NCBI GenBank assembly: GCA_965237965.1
Contig: CBDEGT010000002.1
Location: forward strand, 77,496-141,495
DNA length: 64,000 bases
Source: Longimicrobiales bacterium
GTDB lineage: Bacteria; Gemmatimonadota; Gemmatimonadetes; Longimicrobiales; Gaopeijiaceae
Reading direction: 5' to 3'
Part shown: positions 11,005-47,917 of the stretch, piece by piece
Numbering within the stretch: the first letter of the stretch is position 1
Layout: every line of letters starts with the position of its first letter
Notes under the pieces: model-generated
Seen by the model: only the letters and a program-made list of their open reading frames with translations
Database searches by the model: none
Told to the model about the DNA's origin: nothing
Made by a program: the position numbers and the translations under genes

Positions 11005-13432
<2,428 letters not shown>

Positions 13433-16864: not shown

Positions 16865-16914
16865 ATCACCCCACCTCCTACCGGACCTGTGCCAGTGACC
16901 GGCCCCCCCCCGAT

Positions 16915-16985
16915 CTTACGCTCGATGCGGTAGCGGCCTACAAGGGCTGCGTTCAGGCGGGTGACGGGATCGGTCACCAGTTGCC
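16915..16985 (-). repeat. kinase-5' module, copy B (truncated; directly upstream of TAXI gene start)
   Basis: Reverse strand encodes [23 protein letters not shown], followed by a G9 run and the TAXI SD/ATG. Confidence 0.6.
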
Positions 16986-17014
16986 CACCGCGTCGGCTGG
17001 GTCGACAGCCTCCC

Positions 17015-17490
17015 CTACGGCGCTACCACTGGCGTCGGCGCCACGAGGCTCATCCTGATCCTCCACGAACCGTCCGCGTCTTTCGTCAACGCGTTCATGT
17101 AGTTCCCGGACGCCTTCACCGGCTCACCGTCCGGGGGCGTCACGTCGACCTCGTACGTTCCCGACGCCACTGCTGATTTTCCATCCTCGGCAATGAACGT
17201 CTCATCAGGTTGAATGGCGAGAGACTGGCTCCCACCGTCGAAACCCGCCTGGATTGCTATCGCGATGGCGTCCCTGTCGCGGTCGGGAGCTTGTCCAGGG
17301 AACATGCGGACCGCCTCCATCGTGTATAGCTCGGCGAGTCCTCCTGAGTCCTTGTTCCCGAAGAGTTGAACGTAGGTATCACCCAGAGCGGTGATCGCCG
17401 TCCTTTCGGCGTTAAGGTCGACCTGAGGCCCCGATGGAGCGCAGGTCGCGAGCAGCACTGAAAGGGACAGGGCCAGGACACGGATGCTCA
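17015..17490 (-). CDS. lipoprotein with SnoaL/NTF2-like (DUF4440-like) fold
   Basis: GTG start VSIRVLALSLSVLLATCAPS lipobox. Small alpha+beta protein pattern. Low-confidence domain call. Confidence 0.45.
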
Positions 17491-17739
17491 CGGAATCCCT
17501 CCTGTGGTCGGCAGGGTCACGCAGCGCGTCGGCTGTGGCTGAGCGAGTATAGCGCGCGGATCTCGTCGCCGCATGCTGGAGTCTGGGGCCTGCGCCGGGC
17601 GGGCGGGATGGCAAGGCCAGGCGGCGGATGCCATCAGGCCCCCGCCGGCTCGTGGGAGGACCTCAGGTGTTGGGCGACGGAGACCTCGCCGGGACCCGAG
17701 GTGGTCGCCGGGCGTGGGGGGTTGGCGGCTGGTTGGGAG

Positions 17740-17890
17740 GGCGCTCGATGCGGTAGCGGCCTTCTAGGGCCGCGTTCAGGCGGGTGACGGGATCGGGCTT
17801 GTTCACCTGCCCAAGATGCCGGTCAGGGCGGTAAACCGCGAGAAAGCTCCGATACACGAGGGCGAGCGAAGGATCACGGCCAGCAAGGTG
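17740..17890 (-). repeat. kinase-5' module, copy C (includes ~80 bp of conserved upstream promoter-like sequence)
   Basis: Encodes ..[20 protein letters not shown]. Upstream part ..caagatgccggtcagggcggtaaaccgcgagaaagc..ggatcacggccagca is shared with copies E and F. Confidence 0.6.
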
Positions 17891-18841: not shown

Positions 18842-21310
<2,469 letters not shown>

Positions 21311-21625: not shown

Positions 21626-23560
21626 ACAAGTCTCCGGAGAAGCCGGGGCGATTCACGTTGACGCTGTAACGCTCTCGCCCTTCCACGGTCCGGGTGACGT
21701 TCATGCCACCCACCGCGGTCATGATCGTCTTCTGGACGTCGGCCATGCTGAGCCCGTAACGGGCCGCCGCCTGCCGGTCCACATCCACCTCTACGTACTT
21801 CCCTCCGATGGCTCGCTCGGCGAAGACGGAGGCCGTACCCTCCACCATGGGGAGGAGGCCCTCGATCTCTTTGCCGATCGCTTCGAGTGTGGCGAGATCT
21901 GGGCCGAAGAGCTTGATGCCGACCGGGGTCTTCAGATCAGGAGACGGTGCCTGAGCATGAAGCCCAGGGTCGGGCGGTAGAACCTCAGCGCCGCTCGGTT
22001 GATCGGGTTCTCCTCCTCCGACCTGATCTTCCCCCGGATGAACGCCCCCATCGCCACCGGCACAAGCGTGATGGCCAGCAGCGCCGACGCGGCCATGGCC
22101 AGAGTCTTGGTCAGCGCCAGGGGCTTGAACAGGCGCCCCTCCTGCGCGACCAGGGAGAAGATGGGTAGGAAGCTCAGCGTAATGATGAGCAGCGAGAGGA
22201 ACAGCGCCGGCCCCACCTCCTTGGACGCATCCAACGAAAGCTGCCAGGAGGAGCGGGTGCCGCCGTCTCGCTCGTTGCGCTCCATGTGCTTGTGCATGTT
22301 TTCGATCATGACGATCGCGCCGTCCACCATGGCCCCGAGCGCGATGGCGATGCCGCCCAGGCTCATGATGTTTGCGTTGACGCCGAGCCAGCGCATGACG
22401 AGGAAGGACATGAGCACGCCCACCGGCAGCGTGACGATGGCGACCAGGGCACTGCGGGCGTGCATGAGGAAGACGATCGCCACCATCGCCACGATCAGGC
22501 TTTCTTCCAAAAGCTTCTCCCTGAGCGTCTCGATGGCGCGGTGGATGAGGTCGCTCCGGTCGTAGCCGACCACGATCTCCACGCCCTCAGGTAGGGAGCG
22601 CTGGATCGCGGCCATCCTCTCCTTGACCCGCTCGATCACCTGGAGGGGATTCTCGCCGAACCGCATGATCACGACCCCGCTGGTCACCTCTCCCTGGCGT
22701 ATGCGCCCGTCCTCTGCTCGCCACGCCAGGTCCGCCATACCCCGCCGGATCTCGGGGCCCACGTGAACGCGGGCCACGTCGCCCACGGTGACGGGCGTGC
22801 CGCCGGGCCCTAATCCAATGGCAACAGACTCCACGTCCTCGATCGAGCCCAGGTAGCCGAGGCCGCGGACCATGTACTCGCTCCCGCCCAGCTCCAGGAC
22901 CCGTCCGCCCACATCCAGGTTCGATTCGCGGAGCGCTCTCAGGACCCGGGAGAGCGGGATCTCGTATGCCAGCAGCCGCTCCGGCTCGAGTTCCACTTGG
23001 TACTGCTTCTCGAGCCCGCCCAAGGTCGCGACCTCGCTCACCCCCGGGACCGCGGTGAGCTGATAGCGCACGTACCAGTCCTGGAGGCTCCGGAGCTCCG
23101 CGTTGTCGAGCTTCCCGCTCCGGTCCAGCAGGACGTACTGCATGACCCAGCCGACCCCCGTCGCGTCGGGGCCGAGCTGCGGCTGCACCTCCTCAGGTAC
23201 CTTGTCGCCGATCCCGTTCAGGTACTCGAGCACGCGGGAGCGTGCCCAGTACAGGTCCACGTCGTCCTCGAACACCACGTACACGAAGGAGCGCCCGAAC
23301 TGGCTAATGCCCCGCACGTACTTCGTGCTCGGAACCTTGAGCAGCTCCGTCGAGAGCGGATAGGTGACCTGGTCTTCGACGACCTGGGGCGCCTGCCCCC
23401 TCCATTCCGTCTGCACGATGACCTGTACATCGGAAAGGTCGGGGATGGCGTCCACCGGGGTCGTGAGCATCGCCCAGCCACCGAAGCCCACGATCGCCAC
23501 GGTACCCAGAACGACGAAGAACTTGTTGTCGAAGGACCACTCGATGATGCGCCGCAGCAT
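21618..23560 (-). pseudogene. CusA/CzcA-family RND heavy-metal efflux pump. Only N-terminal half (542 aa) plus a ~75-aa internal fragment in another frame; 3' half removed by IS3 insertion
   Basis: MLRRIIEWSFDNKFFVVLGTVAIVGFGGWAM.. is the CzcA N-terminus. Second fragment ..YVEVDVDRQAAARYGLSMADVQ.. Ends at the IS3 right IR (21655). Confidence 0.75.
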
Positions 23561-23562
23561 GA

Positions 23563-24141
23563 TTAGCGCCCTCCCGTGGAGTCGGGACGGGCCATTCCGC
23601 CGGCATCCATGTCCATGCTGTCCATCCCTTGCATGCCGCCCATGTCCGTTCCCTCCATGCCGGACATCTCCATCTGCTGCATGCCCCCCATGTCCATTCC
23701 TGCCATGTCGGACATGTTCATCTGCGCCATCATCGCCTTGATCACCTCGGCGAGGTTCGACTCGGAGTCGAGGAGGAATTGCGCCGAGGTGACCACGCGC
23801 TGGCCGGGCTCCACGCCGTCGACGACCTGCACGAGTCCCTCACCGCGCACGCCGAGCACCAGTTCGTGCGGCATGATCTCGCCAGCGCCCATGTCCACAA
23901 AAGCAACCGCACGCTCACCCGAATACAGTACGGCGGAGACCGGAACGGTCAGCGCCTCGCCCAGGTCGGAGGCGAAGCGCACAGTGGCGTACATCCCCGG
24001 CTTGAGCTGTCTGCCGGGGTTGGCCAGCGCGATCCTCGCACGCATGGAGCGGGTACGGTCCGCCAGCGTCGGGTAGACGTACTCGATGGTGCCTGAGAAC
24101 GTTCGGCCGGGGAGCGCAGCCACTTCGACCTCTGCGGGCAT
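23563..24141 (-). pseudogene. RND efflux membrane-fusion protein (CusB-like) C-terminal part with Met-rich metal-binding tail; N-terminus deleted
   Basis: MFP beta-barrel/MP-domain sequence, then ..MNMSDMAGMDMGGMQQMEMSGMEGTDMGGMQGMDSMDMD (MxM repeats typical of Cu/Ag systems). Confidence 0.65.
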
Positions 24142-24163
24142 GCCTTCGCGGACAAGGCCAATG

Positions 24164-24796
24164 TCAGCCTCGAAGACCTCGGCGCTGCGCGGCAGTCCCC
24201 ACCCCGTACTTCGCAGACGTGAGCTCGGCGAAGTCCCCCACCAGCGTCTCGTTACGGCCCGTGACCGCGATGGCCTGATTCACGAAGTAGACCTGGTAGT
24301 AGGTCGACTTCACGTCGGCGAGGACCTGATCCCGCACGCGCTCCACCTCCCACTCCGAGGTCTCGGCTTGGAGCCGCGCCACCTCCTCCCTGAGTCCAAG
24401 CTTGCCCGGCCAGGGGAGCATGGCACTCAATTGCACTTGGGCCATCGTCATCATGTTCCCGCTCAGACGGGGCCGCGCCACCGGCACGTTCATGAGGCCG
24501 ATCCCGACCATCGGGTCGGGCAAGGCCCCTGCCTGGGGCACGCGGGCGGCCGCTGCCTCCGCCGCCCGCTTTGCGGCCGCGATCCGCGGGTTGACGGAAT
24601 CGGCCTCGGCCAGCAGTGCCGGGAGCGCCACGTCCTGGGCGGAGAGCGACTCGGTGCAGGCCATCAGCCATGCGCCTAGACGCGTTGAGATCCTGATCGT
24701 TCTCATTCCCTTCGTGCGAATCATGCTCTCGAGTCCTCTCATAGTCCGTTTCCGATTCCCGCCCCAACCACACACGAGGGCGTCCGGATGGGACAC
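24164..24796 (-). pseudogene. TolC-like outer-membrane efflux factor (CusC/CzcC) N-terminal ~200 aa, fused by deletion to the MFP fragment
   Basis: Signal peptide plus the ..EVERVRDQVLADVKSTYYQVYFVNQAIAV.. OMF repeat pattern. Only about 45% of expected length. Confidence 0.6.
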
Positions 24797-24896
24797 CCGA
24801 GGTAGTCTGGGGCTGCTCCGACGCCGCTCATGCGGTGCCGGTGGCGTTGCTGGGTTTGGAAGGGCGGGGACCGGAAGGAACTCCGGCCCTCGTGGA

Positions 24897-25283
24897 CTAC
24901 GCCCGAGGGGGGTGGAAGAGGGTGTGCGTCAGCAGGAGGTAGGGCGGGACCTCATCGAGGAGGATCCAGGCCGTCGGCAGGGGCGAGATCATGATCTCCA
25001 CTGAGACCACGGCAGGCAGGGAGACGCTGGGGACCCAGCACTGGCCCATCACCGAACAGAAGGGACAGTTGCCACCCTCGTGATCGGCATCATCCCCGTG
25101 GTGTTGCACGGCCATGAACATGCGGGTGGCAACAGCTCCGTCGGACTCGACCTCGCCTAAGGCCGCCGCGCTCCTCGCCGGCATGGGTGCGCACGTCGAC
25201 GCCACGACCGCTTCCGTGAAGGAGAGGGCCATCGCTGCGGAGGCGAGAGTGCCGGCCAGAATGCGCGTACGTCGCTTGATCAT
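24897..25283 (-). CDS. small exported His/Cys-rich protein, possible metal-binding accessory protein of the efflux operon
   Basis: Signal peptide MIKRRTRILAGTLASAAMALS, then ..MAVQHHGDDADHEGGNCPFCSVMGQCW. Confidence 0.35.
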   Translation of the reverse strand: MIKRRTRILAGTLASAAMALSFTEAVVASTCAPMPARSAAALGEVESDGAVATRMFMAVQHHGDDADHEGGNCPFCSVMGQCWVPSVSLPAVVSVEIMISPLPTAWILLDEVPPYLLLTHTLFHPPRA

Positions 25284-25554
25284 GGATCCGGAAGAAGGAT
25301 ACGACTTACGGTACACTCGAGGGTCCGAAAGGGATTCGGGCCCCCGGGCTGCTCGCTAGGGGAAGCTCTGAGCAAGGCCCTTCTGGGGGCGGTGCGAGAC
25401 GGAGGGAGCCGGTTTCAGCGGTCTTGGGGGCGATGACGGGCTGAAAACGCGCCCAACCGGCATGTTCTGGCCGATGATCCCCTCGTTGCGCCCCGCGTGG
25501 GCGGATGTTTCCCGCGCCGGCCGCTCACGCCGTCGAATAGCGGCCCGCCACAAG

Positions 25555-27948: not shown

Positions 27949-28242
27949 TCAGTGCGGCGCGAACGCGCTCAGGACGGGGTCTTGAGCTGGATTGTTGGGA
28001 TAGTTGTGCAGCGGCAGGATGTGCGGGTGCTGCAGGTTCGCGGTCGTCTTGATCTCGGCCAGGAACCGCTCGGCCCCGACTACAGCGGCTAGCTCAGGTT
28101 TCAGAACCTTGAGCGCGACCTTGCGCTCGTGCCGGAGGTCGTCGGCCAGGTAGACCGTCGCCATCCCGCCCTCGCCGAGCTGGCGCTCGATGCGGTAGCG
28201 GCCTTCGAGAGCCGCGTTCAGGCGGTCAGGCACATCGCTCAT
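27949..28242 (-). pseudogene. Ser/Thr protein kinase N-terminal fragment (97 codons; kinase-5' module copy D plus ~60 further kinase codons)
   Basis: [74 protein letters not shown] then divergence and stop. Contains the kinase Gly-loop and VAIK Lys. Confidence 0.7.
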
Positions 28243-28479
28243 GCTGACTCCCAGGGAGAACGGAGTCCTAGGCCATGCAGCGATCTATTATCTATAGGGA
28301 GGCGGCTACAGTTTGGGATGAGAAGGGGGGGATGGCCAGCCTCCCGGCCACGGAGTCGCAAGACTTCAAGCGCTCCAGAACGCAAACGGGCTCAATGGCC
28401 CCAATCGACCGTGGGAGACTGGCCAAATGGACACTACCCCCAAGCAGGTGACCGGTGTCGACGTAAGCGATCGCTTTAG

Positions 28480-30687: not shown

Positions 30688-31149
30688 CGACCAACTTCAA
30701 CAACGCCGAGGAGGAAGCACTCCGGCGTCCGTTGCCGATCGACAACCTAACCGCCCGGTCGCAGGCGACTGCGTCCCACATCTCGGGACCTCGAGTCCGT
30801 GCTACAGTTTGCAGCGCCTCGATCGGTAGGACCCCAAGCTGCACCGGCCCAAGTTTACCGGCCAACACGAGTGCGTATGGGAGATTCGCGGACGGTTGGT
30901 CGCCTTCGGCAACCGGCCGCCAAGTCGGCCTTGACTTTAACCCCTTCTCATGGGAGATGTGGGGGAGGAACAGCGGGATGGCAAGCCCAGGGGGGACCCC
31001 CGAGCGCGACACCCGATCTCATGCTATCAGGCGCTTGATCGCGTCAGCACGACAAAGATGGGCGCACTTTGGGCGCACTCGCCCCTTCGCGCACCCGACG
31101 AGCTGAGATCGCATACCGATGTAAGTCATTGTCCGAAAAGCAGTGCCGA

Positions 31150-31245
31150 GGGCGGGAGTCGAACCCGCAAGGGCCGAAGCCCGGGGGATTTTGAGTCTCA
31201 CTCCATCCACCTTCCACTGCCTCTAACGGCAGCACCGGCGAGCGC
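31150..31245 (-). other. tRNA-like 3' end (T-arm GCGGG-TTCGACT-CCCGC plus acceptor 3' strand); full cloverleaf not resolved by eye
   Basis: Reverse complement ..gggcttcggccc(ttg)gcgggttcgactcccgccctcggcA. 5' half gives only a 6/7 acceptor pairing and no clean anticodon arm. Confidence 0.25.
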
Positions 31246-31356
31246 TCTGACCCCAATCGCGCATCGGTGACAGCCTATGTAGCCGGAAGGTCTGCGGTGG
31301 AACATGGGCGCAAAATGGGATCACTTGTGGCGGTCGGTCACACCGTCATCGCCATC

Positions 31357-31440
31357 AGGTCGGCACCAGCCGCTTCAGCTCCTCGAAGAAGTTCTGGACG
31401 AGGATGACGGTGACGCGGTCTTCGGCCGATCCACATCAGC
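31357..31440 (-). repeat. kinase-3' module, copy 1 (last ~24 codons ..VILVQNFFEELKRLVPT* plus stop), immediately downstream of floA
   Basis: 45 of 47 bp identical to copy 2 at 40296..40385, including synonymous positions. Confidence 0.55.
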
Positions 31441-31546
31441 CAGGTATCCGAAACCGTTCATCCTAGAGGCTCCGATTGTTCTCCTCCTCACCGCCCGAGA
31501 TCGACTCACGCATGGAGGTGTCCGACTGGACGTCGCCGTAACGCAT

Positions 31547-32455
31547 TTAGTTCATCACCTCGAGGTTCCCGCCCCGGAAGGCCTCGGCGATCGCCAGCGG
31601 AACCTTGGCCTCGGCCTCGACCAGATCGGCCCGCTTCTCCTGTACCTTGGCGAGGTTCTCCTGCTCCAGCGCGACGGCCATCGCACGCCGCTCCTCGGCG
31701 CGCGCCTGGGCGACCCGCTTGTCGGCCTCGGCCTGATCGGTCTGCAGCTCGGCGCCGATGTTCTTGCCGACGTCGATGTCAGCGATGTCGATGGAGAGGA
31801 TCTCGAACGCCGTACCGGCGTCCAGACCGCGTGCGAGCACGGTCTTGGAGATGTTGTCGGGGTTCTCGAGGACGGCCTTGTGGGAATCCGCGGAGCCGAT
31901 GTTCGACACGATGCCCTCGCCCACCCGTGCCAGGACCGTCTCCTCGCCTGCGCCTCCCACCAGTCGATTGATGTTCACCCGCACCGTGACGCGCGCGATC
32001 GCGATCAGCTGGATGCCGTCGCGCGCCATGGCCGTTACGCGCGGAGTCGTGATCACCTTCGGGGTGACCGACACCTGGACGGCCTCGAACACATCGCGCC
32101 CGGCAAGGTCGATAGCGGCCGCCTGCTGGAAGGACAGCTCGATATTCGCCTTGTCCGCGCTGATCAGCGCGTGCACCACGCGATCGACCGCACCGCCGGC
32201 GAGGTAGTGCGCCTCGAGGTCCCCGATGTCGAGCACGATTCCCGCCTTGGTCGCCCAGATCAGGGGACGCACCACGGCGGGCGGGTTCACCTTGCGGAGC
32301 CGCATTCCCACCAGGTACCCAATGCCGACCTTCGCGCCGGCGGAGATCGCCTCGACCCACAAGCGCACCGGAATCGCCCAAAGGATCAGGCTTACGAGGA
32401 TGAAAGCGCCGACCAACGTGATCAGGCTGGTCGAAAAGAAGAGCTCGTCAGTCAT
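31547..32455 (-). CDS. floA: flotillin-like protein FloA (UPF0365/YqfA family)
   Basis: [56 protein letters not shown].. is the characteristic FloA N-terminus and SPFH body. Confidence 0.8.
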
Positions 32456-32582
32456 GGGCAGCCCTCGATGGAATCGTGGGTGATTGGGGAGCGTACACTC
32501 CGGCGGAGATCGGTCGTAGGGGACAGGCCCGGCCTCCACTATAACGCATCGCCGCGGCCACTGGAGCAGTACCGGCCAGGTA

Positions 32583-32712
32583 GACGGTCGCCATCCCACC
32601 CTCACCGAGCTGGCGCTCGATGCGGTAGCGACCTTCGAGGGCCGCGTTCAGGCGGGTGACGGGATCGGGCTGGTTCACCCGATCAAGATGCCGGTCAGGG
32701 CGGTAAACCTAT
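32583..32712 (-). repeat. kinase-5' module, copy E, directly upstream of floA (fragment ORF stop overlaps floA ATG: ATGACTGA)
   Basis: Encodes [36 protein letters not shown].. then out-of-family sequence. Confidence 0.6.
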
Positions 32713-32787
32713 GGCCATGTCTGGTGCCATGGGGGTCCTCCTCCTTGTGACAAGTGCAGGGTGTCTTGCAGTGGGGGGTCAGGTCCA

Positions 32788-33408
32788 TCACCGGCGGGCT
32801 CGTATCGGAATCAGAACCCGCGTGCCCGCCCATTCCACGACCAACTCCACGGCGTCCACGGCCAGACTCCTGAAGGAAAAGGTCAGCAACTCGACCGGCT
32901 CCTCCGTGGGCTCGACGGGCACGATCCCCGAGCCGATGTCCTGCTCCCGCACCAGGTCATCGATAGGGATGCCCCATCGCTCTACTTCCGCATTGACGAT
33001 GACCTGCCATTCCTCCCTCGACGGGATTACATAGAGCGAGTAGGAGCCGGACTCCAGCGGGACCCCGGCGATCTCCACCGGGACCGGAACGCTGATAGAG
33101 GTGGCTTCGTTGGCTCCGAGTCGCCACGGCTCTCCGTAGGGCACCACCCGGCCCATGATTGGTCGGCCAACCGTCCGGGGGCGGCTGTAGCATACCTTGA
33201 TCTCCTCACCGTCCAGTCGGACGGTGGCCGAATCGAAAGGGCTGATTCGGATGTCAAGATCAGAGGGATCGTCTCGAATCCAGCAGGCAATATCCACGGG
33301 GCCTACCACCTGCTGGCCTTCGGCTAGGCCGTGACCAGCAAGCTGCAGAACACAACCGAGGACAACGCCTCTGAGACGTGGCACACCCACAGTAAATCGC
33401 ATCTTCAA
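32788..33408 (-). CDS. DUF2911-like secreted protein
   Basis: Signal peptide. ..PWRLGANEATSISV..GSYSLYVIPSREEWQVIVNAEVERWG.. matches the DUF2911 pattern. Confidence 0.5.
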   Translation of the reverse strand: MKMRFTVGVPRLRGVVLGCVLQLAGHGLAEGQQVVGPVDIACWIRDDPSDLDIRISPFDSATVRLDGEEIKVCYSRPRTVGRPIMGRVVPYGEPWRLGANEATSISVPVPVEIAGVPLESGSYSLYVIPSREEWQVIVNAEVERWGIPIDDLVREQDIGSGIVPVEPTEEPVELLTFSFRSLAVDAVELVVEWAGTRVLIPIRARR

Positions 33409-33502
33409 ATCACTCTCAAGGGGCCGGGTGGCGCGTTTTGCGAGTCAAGCCGAGGTTCACGTCCGTGGCATCTGCAGCTCATCGAAGCACGCTGATCCAT
33501 AC

Positions 33503-33685
33503 CGTCGCCATCCCGCCCTCACCGAGCTGGCGCTCGATGCGGTAGCGACCTTCAAGGGCCGCGTTCAGGCGGGTGATGGGATCTGGGCGGTTCACCCGAT
33601 CAAGATGCAGGGCAGGACAGCGAACCGCGAGAAAGCCCCTATATACAGGGGGGTGAGCGGAGGATCACGGCCAGCAGGCAGGCAG
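33503..33685 (-). repeat. kinase-5' module, copy F (longest; includes conserved upstream region), upstream of DUF2911 gene
   Basis: ..ccatcccgccctcaccgagctggcgctcgatgcggtagcgacc..ggatcacggccagcaggc. Confidence 0.6.
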
Positions 33686-36455: not shown

Positions 36456-37201
36456 CTACCGCGACCAAACGTTGTTGTCGTACTGTCGTCTCGAGTCATC
36501 GTTCACCCATTGCACGTAGGGACTCGAGTTCCAGTAACCGGTGTCGAGTACCCGAGCTATTGGCATCACCATTATTGACTTAGCACCCATATTTGCTAGT
36601 GCTCCAGCGGCACTGATGGCGGTCCCACCCGTGACCCATGTGTCCTCAACCAGGAGGACTCGCTCCCCGTCCGCACTCTCGCCGTCGCTGACGAAGCACT
36701 GGGGGCAGTAGGAGCCGCGGGTAGCAACCATGTCATCGTGGGGTTGGTACTCCAGCAACGGGACGAGCTTTTCCCGTAACGGTACCATCATCGCGAGTGC
36801 CTGCCGAAGCGGTTGGTCCATGAAGCTCCTTCCGCGCTTTGATGGTACGGGCGTCACTACTGTCACTTCCCCGCCTAGAAGTGCTTCGATATCTTCCCTG
36901 TTGGAGGCCAAGAACATCCACAGGACAGACACGAGTTGAGCTCGGTACTCCGGATGTCCGGCCTTGTAGTTCGCCATCTTGTTGTACCAAGCGCCAGGCC
37001 GCAGCGCGATGCTCACCGGAACAACTGATTGTAGCGTGTCCGCGGTGCCCCAGTACCACACAATCGTGTACAGGCTGGACAGTAGTTGTATCTATCGCCC
37101 TTCGGTCCCAAGCAACCTGGGCAAACCCAAGATTCAGCAACTGGCGCTACTTGTCTAAGATCTTGGACCACCGCTTGGAAGAATTCACAGACACTAGCCA
37201 C
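36456..37201 (-). pseudogene. ComF/ShosT-like phosphoribosyltransferase-domain protein (N-terminal CxxC..CxxC zinc ribbon + type I PRTase), frameshifted between the two parts
   Basis: Frame 1 (37013..37201): ..WVCPGCLGPKGDRYNYCPACTRLCG. Frame 2 (36456..37061): ..VTVVTPVPSKRGRSF..ERVLLVEDTWVTGGTAISAAGAL (PRPP-binding loop). Confidence 0.6.
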
Positions 37202-37209
37202 CCAAGCTG

Positions 37210-38161
37210 CTACGCGGTCAGGCTCAGTTCTGGTTCATTCTGAGCCTCGAGTCTCTCAAGGATTTCATTTGTTGACCCGACCTCAATCGCCACCGCCCCG
37301 TATGCTCCGTCCTCGACGTACTCCCTCGCCCACTCATACGACTCCACAAGGGATTTGAGTAGAAAGACCGCCCGTCCATGCTGCATCGCGACTCGGGCCT
37401 GCATTCGGGCTCCAGAGGTTTTACTCGCCTCGACCACGACGGTTGTGAGTGAAAGCCCAGACATCACGACATTACGCATGGGGAACGTCCAACGACGCGG
37501 GGTTTGGTGGGGAAAAAACTGACTCAATAGCGCCCCACCAGCATCCACGATTCGCGTGGCGAGTTTCCTGTTTACGGACGGATAGCAATGATCCAGGCCG
37601 GTTCCCATGACGGCGACCGTCCGACCGCCGGCCTCAAGTGTACTAGTGTGAACAGCCGTGTCGATACCGGCGGCCAACCCCGAGTTGATCGTAAACCCCG
37701 CTTCGGCTAGTTCAGACGCGAGAAGAGTTGCCCTCTTCAGCCCCGCGTCGGTCGCGTTCCTCGTGCCGACGATCGCAATAGACCTCGAGTCCATCTGCTC
37801 CCTCCAACTACCCTGCAGAAAGACTATTGGGGGGCGATCGAAGATTGAGTGAAGGTTATGGGTAGCATGGGTCTAGCACTGACCGAACGTCGATTCCTCG
37901 CTCGAGCCAGTCGTCGACGGCTATACGAGCTTCGTCGAGCTCATCAGAGGAAACGGTTCCTGCCAACCCACAATTAACCTCCGGGGTGCTGAACAGCACG
38001 TCATCCAGCGTCAGTTGGATGAGTTCCACAGCTGAGCCCACAAGGTCTATCAGCGTCGCGAGCTGGTCAACCCTGACTGGCTTTATTGCGGCTCTAATTA
38101 GAGCCGCAATAGCAGTTAGCTCGTCGCGGCGGTCGCCAGGGCTCAGATCCTTGAGGTCCAA
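37210..38161 (-). pseudogene. DprA/Smf-family (DNA-processing protein A-like, Rossmann/SLOG) protein, split by a frameshift in the linker
   Basis: N-part ..AVDDWLERGIDVRSVLDPCYP*. C-part frame reads ..NLHSIFDRPPIVFLQGSWREQMDSRSIAIVGTRNATDAGL..NSGLAAGIDTAVH.. The two frames overlap at 37856..37875. Confidence 0.65.
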
Positions 38162-40221: not shown

Positions 40222-40295
40222 CTAGTAGGATCATCGTCGAAGCTGTCCTCGGGTCCTCTTCGCTATTTGAAACCCTTGCGCCAGCCCTTTCATAT

Positions 40296-40385
40296 TAGTT
40301 CGGCACCAGCCGCTTCAGCTCCTCGAAGAAGTTCTGGACGAGGACGAGCGGCTGCTCTGGTTCCGAACCGCGGGCGTTCCACCCG
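40296..40385 (-). repeat. kinase-3' module, copy 2 (..EPEQPLVLVQNFFEELKRLVPN*), downstream of NHL lipoprotein gene
   Basis: 45 of 47 bp identical to copy 1. Confidence 0.55.
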
Positions 40386-40566: not shown

Positions 40567-41775
40567 CTATCGGCTAATCGAGTAGCCCAGGCTCCGACCC
40601 ACGAGCTTACTCGGATCGGCATTGGGCTTGGGCACGAACTTGTCCACGTGCCCGGTATCGAAGTTGACCACGTATACGTTGCCATCTTGGTCCACATCCA
40701 TCTGGTGCGGTCGTGCCATGGCTCCGGGTGCTCGGGTCAACTCGGACGTTCGCCACGTCTCCAGAGCTCCCGTTGGTCCGTACCCACCCCCCGTAAATCC
40801 GTACGTGCCCCAGCCGTACTGATACTCCCCGCTCGTGTTGAACTTCATGATCCGATTCAGCACCGCAGAGGTCACCCAGACCGCGTCGTTCACGTCGATG
40901 CTGACGTCGACAGGGAAGAAGATCTCGGGCCATTCCTCGACGTATTCACCGTTGTCCGTGAAGACCTGGACGCGGCTGTTACCACGGTCAGCAACGTAGA
41001 CGCGACCGCTGCGGTCAACGTCGACGCCGTGGACGAGGTCGAACTGCCCGGGGCCGCTCCCGAGCTCGCCCCACTCCATCATGTACTCGCCGTCCGCATT
41101 GTACTTGACGATGCGCGAGTTCGTGTACCCGTCGGCGAGGAGAAAGCTACCGTCCGGGAGAAAGGCCAGTGACGCGTTCTGGCCAAAGTCGAACGGGCCC
41201 GGGTTCTTGTTCGCCCGCTGCTCTTCCCGGGTCTGGACAGGGTTCGGGTCCCTGAGCTGCATCACCAACTCGCTTCCGTCGTTCGTGAACTTCAGGACCT
41301 GCTCATGGACTCCGTTGCCCCCCCGCTCGACGACCCAGACGTGACGCTCCGGATCGTAGGGACTGATATAGATCGCATGCGGTCGGTTGAACAGCGAATC
41401 CCACTGCGACCACCGCTCGATGATGTTCCCGTCCCCATCGGCAACCACTACGTAGTTCGTGCCGCCAGGCCTTTCCGCCGACCCTCCGCTCGCGCCATAA
41501 ACAGGCGGAAACTCCCTGTCTCCCCACAACCCGATGATGATCCGGTCGGGGGTGTCCGCCGCAATAGCCGCCCCCTGTCCCCACGTCCAGGTCTCATCAT
41601 GATCCGGCGCCGCCTTCCACCAGCCCGGCACGGCGTCGTACTCCCCCGTCCTTTCGTCCCCACCCTTCTGGGCCACCCGCTGCGCCGTAGTACTCTCGCT
41701 CTCCATAGCGCAACTGGACAACACAACCACGCCACCGGTGACGAAAAGGGCCAGGACAACGGCTAACATTCGCAT
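40567..41775 (-). CDS. NHL-repeat (six-bladed beta-propeller) lipoprotein
   Basis: Lipoprotein signal MRMLAVVLALFVTGGVVVLSSC. Repeated ..DGNIYVADxGNxRVQ.. blades (NHL pattern). Confidence 0.7.
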   Translation of the reverse strand: MRMLAVVLALFVTGGVVVLSSCAMESESTTAQRVAQKGGDERTGEYDAVPGWWKAAPDHDETWTWGQGAAIAADTPDRIIIGLWGDREFPPVYGASGGSAERPGGTNYVVVADGDGNIIERWSQWDSLFNRPHAIYISPYDPERHVWVVERGGNGVHEQVLKFTNDGSELVMQLRDPNPVQTREEQRANKNPGPFDFGQNASLAFLPDGSFLLADGYTNSRIVKYNADGEYMMEWGELGSGPGQFDLVHGVDVDRSGRVYVADRGNSRVQVFTDNGEYVEEWPEIFFPVDVSIDVNDAVWVTSAVLNRIMKFNTSGEYQYGWGTYGFTGGGYGPTGALETWRTSELTRAPGAMARPHQMDVDQDGNVYVVNFDTGHVDKFVPKPNADPSKLVGRSLGYSISR

Positions 41776-42076: not shown

Positions 42077-42140
42077 GCGAAACCCCGGAAGCGGCGCCTT
42101 CAGCTCCTCGAAGAAGTTCAGGACGACGATCATCCCCTTG
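42077..42140 (-). repeat. kinase-3' module, copy 3 (diverged: ..MIVVLNFFEELKAPLPGFR*), downstream of metalloprotease gene
   Basis: Core cttcagctcctcgaagaagttc is shared with copies 1 and 2. Confidence 0.5.
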
Positions 42141-42185
42141 GCGCCCCCAGCCCCCTTCTATCTATTGGACACGGGCTCGTGCGTG

Positions 42186-43865
42186 CTACGGTTCCTTACG
42201 GACACGCACACGATATCCCGTGCTGAGGTCCTCAAGCACCTCGACGGTCAGGCCGATCGCCGGATCCTGGAAGGTAGATACCCGTTCCTCTCCGACATTG
42301 AACGCGACTCGATTGGCCGGCTCACAATGGTTGACAATGTCAGGTTGAGCCTGCTGAATCCAAATCGGCACGTCACCGCTCTCTACGTTGCCGTCCACGG
42401 AATAGACCAACACGCCTTCTTGGCAGATCCGCGCGTCAAAGCCGATGCGCTTCCGCGCCTCTATCACGTAAGCTGTCGTTTCGCTCGTTGGGATCACAAT
42501 CGCCTGAAACTCGTCGGGTTGCTCGAACGTGAACACGGTCCTCTCGAACTCACCGAAGGTGATGCAATCGACGTCCTCGTCCAGCACCCATCCTATCTTC
42601 CACTTATGCCAGACCAAGAAGTGGGCAAGGGGGGTTGCAAATGGGAGGCTCATCGGGTCCCAGGCGCCGACTGGCGACATGTTCTCCCAAAAGTCTTCGG
42701 GGTTCGCGCCACCAAGGTCGGGGAGACCGAAGAGGTGCCCGATTTCGTGCACCAGGATGTTGTAGCTGTCAACATCGGTGGCGCCATGCCGGACTTCCAC
42801 TCCGTCGACGGACACGCCGGCGCCAGACTGCTCAGCGTATGAGCTGGTAAATGAGTTGGTAGCGTTCGCGAGTGAGTTCTTTGGGACGACGATGTGGACC
42901 AGGTCGAACTGCGTGAAGTCCACTGAGGCATCTGCCGCATGGATGGCGTCAATTACCCATTCCCAATGGGTACGCACTTCATAGTACTCCATGGGGTGAG
43001 GCAGACGAATCCAGTTCGGAGTTGATTCCGCGGTATTCACCATGCGGCCGTTCGAAGCTTCCGAAAACCACTCCTCGGCCAGCGTCCAAATCTCATCGAA
43101 GACCAGTTCCGTCGAATCAGTTCCCGGAAAGTCAGGGAAGTCCACGAAGAGAACGAGTGATCGCACCACGCCAACGGGACGGAAATACTTCTCCGGCCGA
43201 TGCACAAAGGCCTCCTGTTTGATCCCCTCGATCTTGCAGGTCTCGATGGGAACCGGGTCCGAGACGGCTATGAGGCGGGAACCGACCACACCATCCGTCG
43301 TGGCGAAAACGTCGGCGGCCCCGTAGGCAATCCCTGTTACAACACCCGTTGGGCTGACTTCGACGATCTGCCCATCCGAGGATTCCCATGTGATCGACTT
43401 GTCCTCAACCCGTGTTCCCCCTAGGTCCAACGCCTCAGCAGTTAGCTGGGCGGTTTGCCCTGGCGGGATCATGACCCCCGCGTTGGATCCGATGGATACG
43501 GAGGCGACCATCTGCTCGACCGTGATGGACGCGGACCCGCTCACCGGACCTGCGGTGGCAGTAATCGTGGTGGTCCCGTTTCCGATGGTCTTGACGAGGC
43601 CGCTTGAGGCATCCACGGTCGCAACGCCGACGTTCGATGACGACCAGGCGAATGACTGACCCGAGATCGGGGTCCCTGAAGCGTCTTTCGCGACCGCGCT
43701 GAATTGTTGATCGACGCCGACGGATGCCAAGGTCTGCTCAGACGGTGAAACTTCGATAGTGGCGACTACTGGCTGCGTTGGGCCGGACGGTCCTGCGGGT
43801 TCCTTATCGCCCCCACAGGCACCGACCAGGAGGACAGACAGAGAGACGGACAACACTGTCGCCAT
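42186..43865 (-). CDS. M6-like zinc metalloprotease lipoprotein with Big_2 (bacterial Ig-like) domains. Its ATG and the 26 in-frame codons upstream are supplied by kinase-5' module copy G
   Basis: MATVLSVSLSVLLVGACGG lipobox, Ig-like ..TATIEVSPSEQTLASVG..TITATAG.. repeats, and zincin motif ILVHEIGHLFGLPDLGG. Confidence 0.65.
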   Translation of the reverse strand: MATVLSVSLSVLLVGACGGDKEPAGPSGPTQPVVATIEVSPSEQTLASVGVDQQFSAVAKDASGTPISGQSFAWSSSNVGVATVDASSGLVKTIGNGTTTITATAGPVSGSASITVEQMVASVSIGSNAGVMIPPGQTAQLTAEALDLGGTRVEDKSITWESSDGQIVEVSPTGVVTGIAYGAADVFATTDGVVGSRLIAVSDPVPIETCKIEGIKQEAFVHRPEKYFRPVGVVRSLVLFVDFPDFPGTDSTELVFDEIWTLAEEWFSEASNGRMVNTAESTPNWIRLPHPMEYYEVRTHWEWVIDAIHAADASVDFTQFDLVHIVVPKNSLANATNSFTSSYAEQSGAGVSVDGVEVRHGATDVDSYNILVHEIGHLFGLPDLGGANPEDFWENMSPVGAWDPMSLPFATPLAHFLVWHKWKIGWVLDEDVDCITFGEFERTVFTFEQPDEFQAIVIPTSETTAYVIEARKRIGFDARICQEGVLVYSVDGNVESGDVPIWIQQAQPDIVNHCEPANRVAFNVGEERVSTFQDPAIGLTVEVLEDLSTGYRVRVRKEP

Positions 43866-43950
43866 CCCGCCCTCACCGAGCTGGCGCTCGATGCGGTAGC
43901 GGCCTGACAGGGCTGCGTTCAGGCGGGTGACGGAGTCAGGCATTAGTTGC
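43856..43950 (-). repeat. kinase-5' module, copy G (fused in frame to the metalloprotease gene)
   Basis: [30 protein letters not shown].. The kinase GGMATV supplies the lipoprotein start. Confidence 0.6.
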
Positions 43951-43994
43951 TGCCCTTACGTTGGCGAAGCTCCCCGAACGGCTTGCCCCGATCC

Positions 43995-44815
43995 TCAGTA
44001 GCGCAGCATCCGACGCCGTGGGACGAGGTTTGGCCGACCAAGAAACGCGTATTGGATGTTCTTGACGTAGTTGCTGAAGATACGTCGAACCTGGTAGCCC
44101 GCGACGCCGCGGAGATCCTGCACCCAATCGGTGACGGACTGGGGGCTTCCTCTGAGGAGTACGGATGACGCGAGGAAGTCAGCCTGCTGCGAGCTAGTCT
44201 GGTTGGACAGATAGTACTCCAGGCTTGAACGCCTGGCGTAGTTTCTGAGCTGGAATCGAGGGATCGTGCTTTCCCTGAACGTCGAGATGGCATCATTGAT
44301 GATCCTCATCGATTCATCGGGATCCACGGTGCTTACGTAGATCCCCCCTCCGCTAGCTGCTCGGTCTACTATTTGTGCCCCCGCTGCATAGGACAGTCCC
44401 CTCGCCCTGATTTCGTTGGAGACGGACCCGGCAAGGATTCTCACCGCGACCTGGAACGCAGGGTAGTGTTCATGTGTGCTCGTCGGCCCCCCGAAGTAGC
44501 CGAGGATGTAATTTGTCGGGAGATCGCGAGCCTCTACGGGTTGTAATTTGTCGGGAGATCGCGAGCCTCTACTCTGAGCCCCGGGTCCTCTTTCGCCCAG
44601 GGTTGTGGAAGCTGCCAAGAGTAGGAGCCGACCGGGAGCGCCCTAAGCGTACTCCTGATCGCGGATTCGACGGCGGATCGATCGATCGCGCCGACTACAG
44701 ACAGCAGCATCCTGGAGCGAATAAACTGCTCGCCGTGATAGGACCTACCACACGAATGCGTGGCGACACTTCGGGGTGCGGCCACCGACTGGAGATCCGC
44801 ACCCTGAACGAACAC
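43995..44815 (-). pseudogene. M16-family (insulinase-like) peptidase, C-terminal non-catalytic domain only; 5'-truncated and frameshifted by a ~35-bp tandem duplication
   Basis: ..LLSVVGAIDRSAVESAIRSTLRALPVG.. and ..FQVAVRILAGSVSNEIRARGLSYAAGAQI.. Direct repeat GTAATTTGTCGGGAGATCGCGAGCCTCTAC appears twice around 44510..44575. Confidence 0.6.
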
Positions 44816-45067: not shown

Positions 45068-45586
45068 TTAAGTGTTTGAGCGATACGAGAGCAGTGACGT
45101 TGGGTGATGCGGGTCATGCATCGGCCAGGTGCCCGTTTCGCGAGTGACTCGCGGAGGGAAGTAAGGAAGCGAACATGTCGCGGGCGGAGTCGGGTCGAGG
45201 CGCTGGTGAGGCTGCTCTTCGCCGATTCTATGGAAGCAACATCTTCCGTCCTTGAAGGCCCTAGTCCGCGTGCCGGGGTCGTACCGACTACGTCGGACGG
45301 TTCGAGTGTGCTGAAAGAGCCTCGGCGCAGCCCGAACGGGGGCCAGCATCAAGAGTGCCCGCTCTATGGCGACCAGGTGGACGATGACCTCGACGGCCTC
45401 GGCTTCCGCGTAGTAGGTGTTGGCCCAGCGGGCGATCTGGTTGAGGTTGTTGCCGATGCGCGTGACCGGCCGGCGCACCAGATCCGACAGCGTCAACCCT
45501 GCGGAGCGCGCCTTCGCGTGCCACTCGGCACGCTCCGCCTCGCTGGCGCGAATCTTCAACCACACGTCGCGTCCAGCGCCCCTCAT
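45068..45586 (-). CDS. MobC-family mobilization (relaxosome accessory) protein
   Basis: ..WLKIRASEAERAEWHAKARSAGLTLSDLVRRPV.RIGNNLNQIARWAN.. The RIGNNLNQIAR motif is the MobC hallmark. Confidence 0.6.
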   Translation of the reverse strand: MRGAGRDVWLKIRASEAERAEWHAKARSAGLTLSDLVRRPVTRIGNNLNQIARWANTYYAEAEAVEVIVHLVAIERALLMLAPVRAAPRLFQHTRTVRRSRYDPGTRTRAFKDGRCCFHRIGEEQPHQRLDPTPPATCSLPYFPPRVTRETGTWPMHDPHHPTSLLSYRSNT

Positions 45587-45673
45587 GTGCCGTTGCCGTT
45601 GGGAGGGTCGAAGGGGGCACAGCCCCTCGCCAGCCCCTGCCGGGGACCCGCGAAGCGTGGCCCCAAAGGGTAG

Positions 45674-45708
45674 GCTGGCTCATGACAGGTAACGGGTCAT
45701 GAGCCAGC
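45674..45708. other. perfect 13-bp-stem hairpin GCTGGCTCATGAC-aggtaacgg-GTCATGAGCCAGC, 4 bp downstream of int1 stop
   Basis: Read directly. Candidate terminator or recombination (att core-type) site. Confidence 0.6.
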
Positions 45709-45711
45709 GTC

Positions 45712-46896
45712 TCAGCGGATCGGTTCGGCCTCCGGGTCTCGACGCTTGCCAGCGAGATACGCGGCCCAAGCCTGCATGACCTCGCGCCTCCGGTCCAGCA
45801 GGTCCGAACGGGCGTAGGCGGCCTCGGCCTGACTGCGGACCTTGTGTGCGAGCGCCGCCTCCGCCACCTCGCGCGCCACGCCCGTCTCCGAGCACCAGTC
45901 GCGGAACGAGGACCTCATCCCGTGGGGCGTTCCTGCGATGCCGAGACGCCGGAGCAACTTGCTGAACATCGAGGCGTGGATCCTTCCTCCCTTCGCGCCC
46001 CGGAACACGATCCCGCCGCCGCCGTGGAGCTTCCGGGCTTCCTCGAGGATCTCCAAGGCCCGCCCCGACAGGGGAACCCGGTGCTCGCGCTTCGCCTTCA
46101 TGCGGTCGGCGGGAATGGTCCAGACATCGAGCTCGACCTCGTCGCACGCCGCGCCCCGGACCTCGTTCGAGCGTGTCGCGGTCAGGACCATGAACTCGAA
46201 CGCCAGCCGGACACCGGCATGGGACTCCGAGTCGCGGACCTTGGCCAGAGCCGCCGCCACCTCGCCGTGCGGGAGCGCCTTGTGATGCCGGATGGCGTTG
46301 CCGTTACGCGGCAGCGCGGCGGCGATGGCGTCCCCCGCCGGGTTGTCCGGCCGGTAGCCCTTCGCGACGGCCCACTTCATCACCGCGCCGATCCGCTGGT
46401 GCACGGCCCTCGCGGTCGCGGGCTTGCTCGACCAGATGGGCTTGAGGATGGCGAGCACGTCGGCCGTCGCGACCTCGCTCACGCGCTTCCGGCCGATGCG
46501 CGGATGGGCGTAGTCCCGCAGCGTCTGCCGCCACTGCCCGGCCATGCGGGATGGGTTCTTCCAGGTCGGCGAGTGGATCGCCATCACCTTCTCGACGGCC
46601 GCCTCGAAGGTGGGAACCCCCGCGTCTCTCGGGTCGTGGCCCCAATGGACCGCCCGCCTGTACTCCAGCGCCTTCTCCCTCGCCTCCCTGAGCGTCACGA
46701 CCGGGTACGAGCCCAGTCCGAGATTGGTGGGCTTCCCCGCCACTCGAATGCGCTGGCCCCAAGACTTGGAGACGCGCCCGGACTTCATCCGGTGGACGCG
46801 GAGGTACAGGCCGAGCCCGCCGAGCCCGCCGTCGCCGTAGCGTCCCGGCGTCTTCACCCGCGCCACGAAGGCGGCCGTAAGGGGTCGTTTACGCAT
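45712..46896 (-). CDS. tyrosine-type site-specific integrase (P4-like, N-terminal DUF4102 arm-binding domain)
   Basis: ..RYGDGGLGGLGLYLRV.. (DUF4102) and C-terminal ..HGMRSSFRDWCSETG..LAHKVRSQAEAAYARSDL.. (R..H..R..Y catalytic region). Confidence 0.85.
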   Translation of the reverse strand: MRKRPLTAAFVARVKTPGRYGDGGLGGLGLYLRVHRMKSGRVSKSWGQRIRVAGKPTNLGLGSYPVVTLREAREKALEYRRAVHWGHDPRDAGVPTFEAAVEKVMAIHSPTWKNPSRMAGQWRQTLRDYAHPRIGRKRVSEVATADVLAILKPIWSSKPATARAVHQRIGAVMKWAVAKGYRPDNPAGDAIAAALPRNGNAIRHHKALPHGEVAAALAKVRDSESHAGVRLAFEFMVLTATRSNEVRGAACDEVELDVWTIPADRMKAKREHRVPLSGRALEILEEARKLHGGGGIVFRGAKGGRIHASMFSKLLRRLGIAGTPHGMRSSFRDWCSETGVAREVAEAALAHKVRSQAEAAYARSDLLDRRREVMQAWAAYLAGKRRDPEAEPIR

Positions 46897-47062
46897 GCGG
46901 TGTATCCTACCTGTGTATCACATATCGACGGATACACAATGGTACAATACGGTACGTACCGGCACAAGAGGGAGCCTGTAAACACGGCTCGGATACGCCG
47001 TATCACATTGTAATAACACACTTTACGGAACACTACGGGACCGCATGGGACGATGTTCGCGA

Positions 47063-47607
47063 TCATACTGTTGTACTTGTGACAGAAGTCGCCCTTGACC
47101 TCGAGCACGAGGGCGCTCGCCCGGCGGGCGGGACGGTCGGCCTGCCAGGAGAGGAGCTGCTCCGGACGAACCGGAGGGCCTGCCAGCGATCGATCCGGAG
47201 ATAGGCGGAGATCTGGGCGCGGGTGAACACGCCGCTGTGGAGACAAGCCAGGGCGATCCACTCGGCTTGGCGTCCCGTCCAGCCGAACGCTTCGAGCGCG
47301 TCTTCCCGTCCCCTGAGATGCGCGATCATCGCGGCGCTTCCGTGACCAGAGCCCGGTCGGCCTGCAGGTAGGTGATGAGGATGCCCATCGGGTTGTAGAC
47401 GACGAGCTCGGAGGGGATGACGGTGAGGAAGGTGAACCGGAGCGTGATCGACCACCGCTCCCTCAGGGTCTCCTGCCCCTGCCGGAGGTGGACCAGGTCG
47501 AAGTCGGCGGTCGCGCCGTGGGGTGCCTCCGGTGCGGGGTGGATGCGGAGCACGACCTGCTCGACCTGGAGTTCGGTGTCGGCGGTGCCGGCCGCCATGG
47601 CGGCCAC
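47063..47607 (-). CDS. hypothetical protein between the two integrase genes; two overlapping frames, possibly frameshifted. wHTH-like ..LACLHSGVFTRAQISAYLRIDRWQALRFVR
   Basis: ORFs 47326..47607 and 47063..47455. No family recognised. Confidence 0.3.
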
Positions 47608-47917
47608 CTCGGCGCCGTCACGCGTGAACGCGGCGTTCGCCAGCTCGGTCGAGAGGAAGCGGAGACTCCGGGTCCAGTGCTCCTCGACCGTGGCCCGGCG
47701 GCGCGAGTAGAAATCGGCATGAAGCGGTTCAGGAAGAACTTTGCCGATGACGTTCCAAGACGGCCCGTAACGACCCGTAGTAACCCTATAACCTCTTAAA
47801 CTACAGCGTGTTGCGTTACATAGGCTGAGTCGATTCGTCTATTGCCGTGCCGGGACACCTATTGTATTCTCCCTTGAATAGTGTACTATAAAGTGATCCG
47901 CAGCACGGGAGAATACG

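Follow-up and report, generated by a model that had tools for sequence, protein, structure and literature searches.

Why should a floA gene stand between the two ends of a protein kinase gene whose body is missing? This question arises in a stretch of 64,000 nucleotides (hereafter the window) from a Longimicrobiales bacterium of the phylum Gemmatimonadota (GenBank assembly GCA_965237965.1, contig CBDEGT010000002.1, positions 77,496 to 141,495). A first-pass annotation made from the sequence alone had pointed out that floA is bracketed on the minus strand by a kinase 5′ module (copy E) upstream and a kinase 3′ module (c1) downstream, that the open reading frame (ORF) of the 5′ fragment ends over the floA start, and that a protease gene repeats this architecture. 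It had proposed a cassette exchange that uses the conserved ends as recombination substrates or, alternatively, the reuse of the ends as a portable promoter and terminator. The order E, floA, c1 was found as described, the TGA stop of the stub ORF does overlap the floA start codon, and at the protease the 5′ copy G is fused in frame and the 3′ copy c3 follows the stop codon (Table 1). The reading that best fits our results is that the minus strand of the window carries a remodelled kinase array, in which kinase bodies are gone or substituted and pieces of the inter-kinase junctions are left.

Ten modules, namely seven 5′ stubs and three 3′ stubs, were found in the window as copies of a 126-nt and a 54-nt repeat, respectively, and every one of them is on the minus strand. 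In BLASTN comparisons, the 5′ copies are 87–94% identical to E over 70–116 nt (E shares 92% identity with F and 94% with D, which is a true kinase start), and among the 3′ copies c2 gave 94% identity over 54 nt and c3 94% over 33 nt. Because no match was expected by chance in shuffled sequence for the mismatch-tolerant module searches, these repeats are not chance similarities. The 5′ copies encode the glycine-loop start of a protein kinase (ending in YLA), and the 3′ copies encode V(I/V)LVQNFFEELKRLVP followed by a stop codon.

An exact-pattern scan of species-representative genomes yielded 30 loci with the 5′ core, 27 of which belong to Gemmatimonadota/Longimicrobiales metagenome-assembled genomes (MAGs); about 10 of the 30 run on into ORFs of approximately 885 aa with kinase motifs, and about 11 other matches are stubs ending after 20–42 codons. 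In tblastn, the 5′ flank is 86–95% identical at the amino acid level to residues 1–33 of the full-length kinases, copy D matches the Pfam Pkinase profile, and c1, c2 and c3 align to the last 16–25 residues of the full-length proteins, whose C-terminal ends read ILVQNFFEELKRLVP, ILVQNFFEELRQVVP, NFFEELKRLVPN, NFFEELRQVVP or NWFEELRQRMGN. Since the same full-length ORFs begin with the 5′ module and end with the 3′ module, the flanks are the two ends of one family, as the first-pass annotation had supposed, and the shell around floA derives from membrane Ser/Thr kinases of approximately 885 aa with a TolB-like beta-propeller. A 614-aa protein encoded in a related locus (L033, 3886–5730) combines an N-terminal Usp domain with the kinase-type TolB-like propeller and the 3′ module, showing that the propeller and the 3′ end occur also with a non-kinase N-terminus. 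A codon-identity test for homogenization of the 5′ ends among full-length paralogues was biased, the loci having been picked by an exact pattern in that very part, and was not used.

The kinase genes are arranged head to tail in tandem arrays, with four paralogues in locus L019 and three each in L015, L006 and L028; the paralogues of an array are 45–58% identical to one another, and the gaps in these arrays of two to four genes are 3–150 nt long, the smallest being 3–15 nt. A leader of about 100 nt with the motifs CTCGCGGTT and GCATCTTGA is kept across MAGs, and on the left it is similar to a degraded 3′ module (VVIVLLVHP and a stop codon), indicating that many of the "stubs" are whole inter-kinase junction fragments. 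Such surviving pieces comprise the last ~10–28 codons of a kinase, a spacer of ~100 nt and the first ~5–35 codons. When eight full-length kinases were compared by tblastn with the window and all long related loci (~470 kb in total), many 5′ pieces and some 3′ pieces were found and no internal-only kinase fragment. The same stubs, with fewer insertion sequences (IS), are present in L034, a locus on a 3.5-Mb contig of the same sample that is 98–99.8% identical to the window and has the order M16, M16, [G] protease [c3], NHL [c2], IS110, IS3, stub, stub, DUF5916 (reverse), [F] DUF2911, [E] floA; the stub region is part of chromosomal synteny and not a one-off.

The floA gene of the window is itself non-standard. 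An in-frame TAA (31547–31549) follows codon 302, and the normal C-terminal sequence (MRYGDVQSDTSMRESIS and onward) continues past it to the natural stop TAG at 31463–31465, 27 codons further on. Homologues are mostly 331–335 aa long; the 302-aa form is found also in clusters P0122 and P0123. Unlike in the canonical operon, where a floA of ~331 aa lies directly 3′ of nfeD, nfeD is missing beside the window gene. The 3.5-Mb contig of L034 (ctg495819), which belongs to a sister genome, contains both versions: an intact canonical operon of nfeD (457 aa) and floA (332 aa) at 1.498–1.519 Mb and the floA in the shell at 3.279–3.300 Mb, ~1.8 Mb apart. The canonical operon of the same species has neither flank and no stub upstream. 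The first-pass annotation had named two observations that would tell against it, and they came out differently: a canonical floA free of the flanks does exist, and the flanks are widespread rather than confined to the floA and protease loci.

Comparison with a canonical locus (L041) delimited a copied fragment that spans the nfeD stop codon to ~30 nt beyond the floA stop, with weaker similarity to ~45 nt, within the next gene, and a filler joins the end of the kinase homology to the start of this fragment (Table 1). In a sliding comparison, the window floA is 98–100% identical to the canonical gene over 32420–31621 and drops to 74% near the 3′ end, and its last ~400 nt together with the 3′ stub are 95–98% identical to the shell copies of L035 and L065. 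This chimeric profile suggests that the shell floA is of an older lineage, part of which has been replaced through gene conversion by the canonical gene resident in the genome; a fresh duplication from the canonical copy was rejected on the basis of the same profile with its older 3′ end. The window floA is thus a spare, non-canonical and chimeric second copy, and it should be annotated as a truncated spare, not as the functional nfeD-floA operon of the organism.

We then ask whether such units recur in other loci and where the similarity breaks off. The unit of E stub, filler and floA is 93.9% identical in L088, a Joint Genome Institute (JGI) contig; the similarity begins at 32669, the left edge of the conserved 5′ core, and the leader and the neighbours upstream are unrelated. 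On the other side, floA with the 3′ stub is common to the window, L035/L036 (90%) and L065 (94%), all of which have the same c1/floA junction, and in the comparison with L065 and L035 high identity stops within the NFFEELK core; past this point the last codons and everything downstream are different. For the protease, window 43940–42186 corresponds to L033 63–1818 at 95.4% identity with the same stub/cargo junction (GGMATV joined to LSVSLSV), and what lies upstream is a typical kinase leader in L033 and the end of an M16 gene in the window. The apparent breakpoints are inside the modules on both sides for floA and on the 5′ side for the protease, but not for DUF2911 nor on the 3′ side of the protease. 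The boundaries at the module cores fit the signatures that would be expected of crossovers within the conserved cores.

The related loci also contain shells that are empty or carry other cargo. In L023, a 64-aa in-frame ORF joins the 5′ end to IMARFVGTDSTPPPTTVLVNNFFEELRRLAPN and a stop codon, with a complete kinase gene next in line downstream; the corresponding fusion of L106 is 77 aa long, and in L058 PHIL is joined to ILVQNFFEEL. Among filled shells, L088/L097 show a 5′ stub, a beta-lactamase-family gene and a 3′ stub, followed by a 5′ stub fused to another ORF, and L100 shows an antisense Sel1-repeat gene between a 5′ stub and a 3′ stub; genes beside stubs elsewhere encode LRR, sulfatase, FG-GAP, SusD and tannase proteins.

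On these grounds, we give an even chance to an account in which fragments were inserted into a kinase array, homologous recombination in the conserved ends then shuffled them, and erosion is still under way. A DNA fragment would first have entered a kinase gene by illegitimate joining, as the fillers and the fragment-like boundaries of floA suggest; in the case of floA, the founding event would have been the joining of a ~1.1-kb nfeD-floA piece via the 61-nt filler. Homologous recombination in the module cores may next have carried a unit composed of 5′ core, cargo and 3′ core from one kinase locus or lineage to another, the step to which the mosaic boundaries point, and the interior of the unit would have been overwritten in part by gene conversion from the resident canonical floA. 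Deletions would then wear down the non-functional kinase remnants, as indicated by the series of stub lengths, and short stubs would persist beside functional neighbours. The conserved ends of a many-copy family would in this manner serve as landing pads, with no dedicated recombinase implied.

Several observations weigh against this account. All data come from metagenome assemblies. The right-hand junction of the protease is not alike in the window and L033, where a different 3′ module (VVLVVVNWLEE and onward) overlaps the protease stop and is followed by a spacer, a leader and a stub of 12 codons that an IS interrupts. The DUF2911 segment (33469–32782) is 97% identical in L114/L115 but sits there between different stub versions with different junctions: on its upstream side are another leader, ~5 codons and a filler of 85 nt, and on its downstream side another leader with a 37-codon stub, which places its breakpoints outside the modules. 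L035/L036 have floA and the 3′ stub but an nfeD 3′ fragment where the 5′ stub is expected. In L037, the 3′ stub is missing, and a 5′ stub (ending in GGMATV) precedes an intact nfeD-floA at a distance of 78 nt. When the DUF2911 homologues and their contexts were inspected, no relative carried an intact kinase or other cargo between the same outer flanks. The core-edge boundaries, moreover, could equally stem from gene conversion of stubs by paralogues. The cassette exchange proposed by the first-pass annotation is supported in part by the empty shells, the other cargo, the recurrence of the floA and protease units and the core-edge boundaries, and is weakened by junctions that vary and by flanks that do not always occur together; of the shells that it expected in relatives, those with other cargo (beta-lactamase-family, Sel1) were found and one with an intact kinase in the same outer flanks was not. 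We are doubtful about the wider claim that junction fragments of kinase arrays (3′ end, spacer, 5′ end) form a general integrase-free cassette platform in Gemmatimonadota; only tentatively can it be proposed that any gene flanked by both ends might enter any kinase locus of related genomes by homologous recombination, in which case the arrays would be built-in sites at which genes are gained, duplicated and exchanged.

A plainer reading, which we regard as a serious rival though less probable than reshuffling in the conserved ends, is decay in a tolerant region: dispensable arrays gather IS elements, duplicated fragments and foreign genes, and the kinases are deleted piecemeal without any cassette exchange. 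The stubs would then resemble one another because of recent origin or conversion by live paralogues, and the kinase ends would last longest because deleting them would harm the functional neighbour. The window is indeed rich in IS elements (four IS5, two IS3, IS110 and IS1595) and has two integrase genes; stubs lie at IS ends in the cases of A, D, the module at 13483, the second L033 stub and L034 15072. Stub lengths form a continuum from approximately codon 5 to 106, with internally deleted intermediates such as the protease homologue P0005 of L032 (42% identical), in which kinase residues 1–20 are joined to residues ~55–100 and then to the protein's own signal peptide. The empty shells look like plain internal deletions, one of them at an IL/IL microhomology, and the DUF2911 breakpoints outside the modules and the premature stop in floA also accord with decay. 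Within the continuum, however, the ends have a mode at codons 20–37, where about 24 of the 36 fall although the gene has 885 codons, and internal-only fragments are missing. In a 13-codon core, moreover, 42 stubs differ from the consensus by 96 synonymous and 26 non-synonymous changes, compared with 49 to 33 in live kinases. Because this synonymous bias is as strong as in live kinases, the stubs are young, or have been repeatedly converted by live paralogues, or are under selection; differences so largely synonymous are not those of old neutral relics. Also against decay is cargo that is 94–97% identical although the lineages carrying it have non-homologous outer flanks; in three of the five cases the boundaries coincide with module cores. 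If it nevertheless holds, the window would be a clean case of dying genes leaving their ends.

The orientation of the stubs bears on another explanation, in which the 5′ module drives the downstream gene and the 3′ module is kept as its 3′ end or terminator. About 13 stubs are co-oriented with the next gene, as against about 6 that point towards an IS or a convergent gene (duplicates between the window and L034 counted once), and the co-oriented genes usually start 20–130 nt past the stub, a few up to ~320 nt. The conserved leader, the in-frame fusions (the protease and a 638-aa ORF in L088) and the stop/start overlap at floA may be understood in the same manner. The modules also fit the operational definition of putative mobile promoters, which are sequences of at least 50 nt with at least 80% identity upstream of non-homologous genes in one genome (Matus-Garcia, Nijveen and van Passel 2012, PMC3488235): seven copies with 87–94% identity over 70–116 nt precede floA, DUF2911, DUF4440, the protease and TAXI/TRAP genes. 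Recombination-mediated duplication is one of the proposed routes for putative mobile promoters (PMC3488235). The unit found here differs from them in that it contains a start codon with 5–35 kinase codons, has a matching partner from the 3′ gene end and originates from a tandem array; in addition, its promoter activity is only putative, and consensus scans of the modules gave no promoter. No sigma-70-like promoter was detected in any 5′ module, though the sigma-70 consensus may not be that of this phylum, and a scan found no intrinsic terminator in any 3′ module, which leaves the alternative of the first-pass annotation, a portable promoter plus terminator, without sequence support. Moreover, G and B have no leader at all, the L100 cargo is antisense, several stubs face an IS or the 3′ end of a convergent gene, and the 20–35 retained codons are left unexplained. 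We consider reused expression signals improbable as the explanation of the pattern.

We also examined whether the 5′ module folds into a structured RNA or DNA, and rejected this for want of covariation support. A three-way junction is predicted in every 5′ copy with z-scores of only −0.8 to −3.0, and an alignment of 43 diverse copies gave a paired fraction of 84.3% and a covariation of 0.103, as against 84.4% and 0.100 in shuffled controls. This predicted fold without covariation also speaks against reused expression signals. Among known RNA families, the sole matches above the gathering threshold are two IS3 ALIL frameshift pseudoknots.

The tight single-gene units in one orientation, separated by a repeated element of ~100–250 nt, may also recall an integron-like site-specific system, in which the module or junction would be a recombinase site for excising and inserting single-gene cassettes, and tyrosine recombinase genes are present in the window, L114 and L038. 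The junctions vary, however, from approximately codon 5 to 106 and the filler lengths differ; no recombinase is consistently adjacent, and neither a conserved hairpin nor covariation was found. The two integrases of the window (45712–46896 and 47918–49072), which have Arm-DNA-bind_3, Phage_int_M and Phage_integrase domains, are of the phage/P4 type and flank a MobC gene, and neither borders the array. Such a system is therefore very unlikely. Least credible of all is an assembly artefact by chimeric joins at the repeat, for which the metagenome source and one carrying contig at 2x coverage might be cited: the same junctions recur in independent contigs, samples and projects (L001, L034 at 19x and 3.5 Mb, L088 and L065 from JGI, L035/L036 and L033), on the basis of which we rejected it, and IS copies of 100% identity are resolved in the window, indicating long reads.

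We found no description of these stubs or arrays in the literature, and the pattern of kinase-end stubs around unrelated genes is apparently undescribed. As a general concept, putative mobile promoters come nearest to it; in mechanism, the nearest analogies are systems that replace genes between flanking homologies. The nearest known systems may be compared with it by analogy. In Borrelia hermsii, a short upstream homology sequence around the start codon and a downstream homology sequence bracket the unrelated vsp and vlp families, and recombination in them swaps the body of the gene. The arrangement here would be similar in that a short conserved start-codon element and a downstream element bracket unrelated genes; it would differ in having neither one expression site set against silent archived copies nor a connection with antigenic variation, and it differs in that ordinary periplasmic or membrane genes make up the cargo and the junctions vary. 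Integron arrays have IntI and attI and an attC-type imperfect palindrome with a fixed crossover. Co-oriented single-gene units, a repeated separator, diverse cargo and the same cargo in different contexts may be regarded as common to both, but here IntI, attI and an attC-type fixed crossover are absent and the breakpoints vary. In rhs and cdiA loci, every orphan toxin module downstream of the large gene comes after a stub copied from that gene's conserved part, and the stub gives homology for swapping. A stub of a conserved large-gene part before each variable gene is a comparable feature, whereas our stubs are the 5′ start and not an internal core, the stubs come from a kinase gene and the cargo is not composed of toxin/immunity pairs. 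De Vries and Wackernagel reportedly described homology-facilitated illegitimate recombination in natural transformation in 2002; its combination of a single homologous anchor with an illegitimate joint, at which filler or microhomology occurs, would resemble what is found here, and dprA- and comF-like genes are present in the window. This process may be a candidate for the founding events only.

If the conserved ends do act as landing pads, gene gain and shuffling would be possible without a transposase or integrase, and there would be a concrete reason why expanded kinase arrays of Gemmatimonadota coincide with variable gene content. In genome annotation, the short ORFs called "kinase", of which there are dozens, and the N-terminal kinase "fusions" like that of the protease should be regarded as recombination scars and not as domains.

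Table 1. Kinase-end modules, cargo genes and associated features in the window. Repeat copies are those of the 126-nt (5′) and 54-nt (3′) repeats.
Feature	Position	Repeat copy	Strand	Description
5′ module A	763–951	782–907	−	leader and ~25 codons; adjoins a transposase gene
Eighth, headless module	13483–13643		−	kinase leader, TTG start and two codons; cut by IS3
TRAP DctM gene	13762–15789			with the TAXI gene, transporter pair downstream of B
TAXI gene	15809–16864			with the TRAP DctM gene, transporter pair downstream of B
5′ module B	16904–16977	16889–17014	−	degraded, ~23 codons, no leader; upstream of TAXI and TRAP DctM genes
5′ module C	17731–17882	17712–17837	−	full leader and ~20 codons; upstream of DUF4440/SnoaL gene (17015–17614)
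Module D	27949–28300	28154–28279	−	true kinase start (ORF of 97 aa that matches Pkinase), truncated among IS5 copies
3′ module c1	31355–31428	31354–31407	−	last ~24 codons of kinase/propeller gene and TGA, AEDRVTVILVQNFFEELKRLVPT and stop
Copied nfeD-floA fragment	31426–32511		−	1.09 kb; equals L041 9945–11030
floA ORF	31547–32455		−	302 aa; Pfam FloA E=5e-140
76-aa stub ORF	32448–32678		−	TGA stop overlaps floA ATG in ATGACTGA
Filler	32512–32572		−	61 nt between end of kinase homology and start of floA-locus homology; kept in L088
5′ module E	32571–32768	32584–32709 (core)	−	partial kinase leader, GTG start and first ~34 codons, ending GGMATVYLA
DUF2911 gene	32788–33408		−	cargo between F and E
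5′ module F	33493–33672	33501–33626	−	full ~95-nt leader and 31 codons, ending GGMATV; upstream of DUF2911
3′ module c2	40294–40375	40294–40347	−	ends PLVLVQNFFEELKRLVPN and stop, then IS end directly
NHL-repeat lipoprotein gene	40567–41775		−	between c3 and c2
3′ module c3	42079–42160	42079–42132	−	ends GMIVVLNFFEELKAPLPGFR and stop; just 3′ of protease (starts ~25–55 nt past its stop)
Big_2/metalloprotease-like lipoprotein ORF	42186–43943		−	585 aa; opens with kinase residues of module G
5′ module G	43845–44001	43855–43980	−	no kinase leader; 29–30 codons fused in frame to protease signal peptide

Several other features were recorded around the stubs. In L088 (6440–6500) and L097 (3247–3310), the beta-lactamase-family cargo ends with TNFLERIR and a stop codon, a degenerate NFFEELK, right before an intact second 3′ module, and this end may be a duplication scar at the junction. 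L097 lacks 1.8 kb of L088 by a deletion between 69-nt direct repeats (L088 6790–6858 and 8646–8714), not at the kinase modules. Directly after c2, the window has a DUF4096/DDE_Tnp_1-type IS (40230–40000, end GGGCCTGTTAACACTATC); the same IS follows a truncated 5′ stub in L033 (2669–2900 and 7096–7322), and an IS110 occupies the position after c2 in L034. IS elements thus seem to favour module edges as insertion points. At 13038–13154 (−) and 19120–19236 (+), two IS3 copies that are nearly identical lie in inverted orientation; each has an ALIL pseudoknot (110 bits), and one of them interrupts a kinase 5′ module (13483) after its second codon.

With regard to tRNA-linked integration, ARAGORN calls no tRNA in the window. 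A tRNA-like sequence with a long variable arm at 31144–31231 (−), just downstream of c1, scores 21 bits against tRNA-Sec, for which the gathering score is 47; its possible origins are a tRNA that has decayed and an old attachment site of which a remnant is left beside an IS110 copy. L034 has two intact M16 peptidase genes; in the window, all of the first and most of the second have given way to a segment (45068–49072) with a MobC/NikA-like gene and two divergent phage-type integrases, which is probably an integrated mobilisable element. The genes for a ComF-like phosphoribosyltransferase and for DprA (DNA_processg_A) are located at 36456–37061 and 37210–37794 (−), between an IS1595 and the DUF5916 gene; these competence-type genes sit in an inserted segment and are absent at the same position in the sister strain L034. 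Finally, the region 21932–25316 (−), between IS copies, contains a truncated AcrB/CusA-type efflux pump gene (542 aa, the first half of the profile), a HlyD-like gene and small ORFs, and is another decaying gene cluster.

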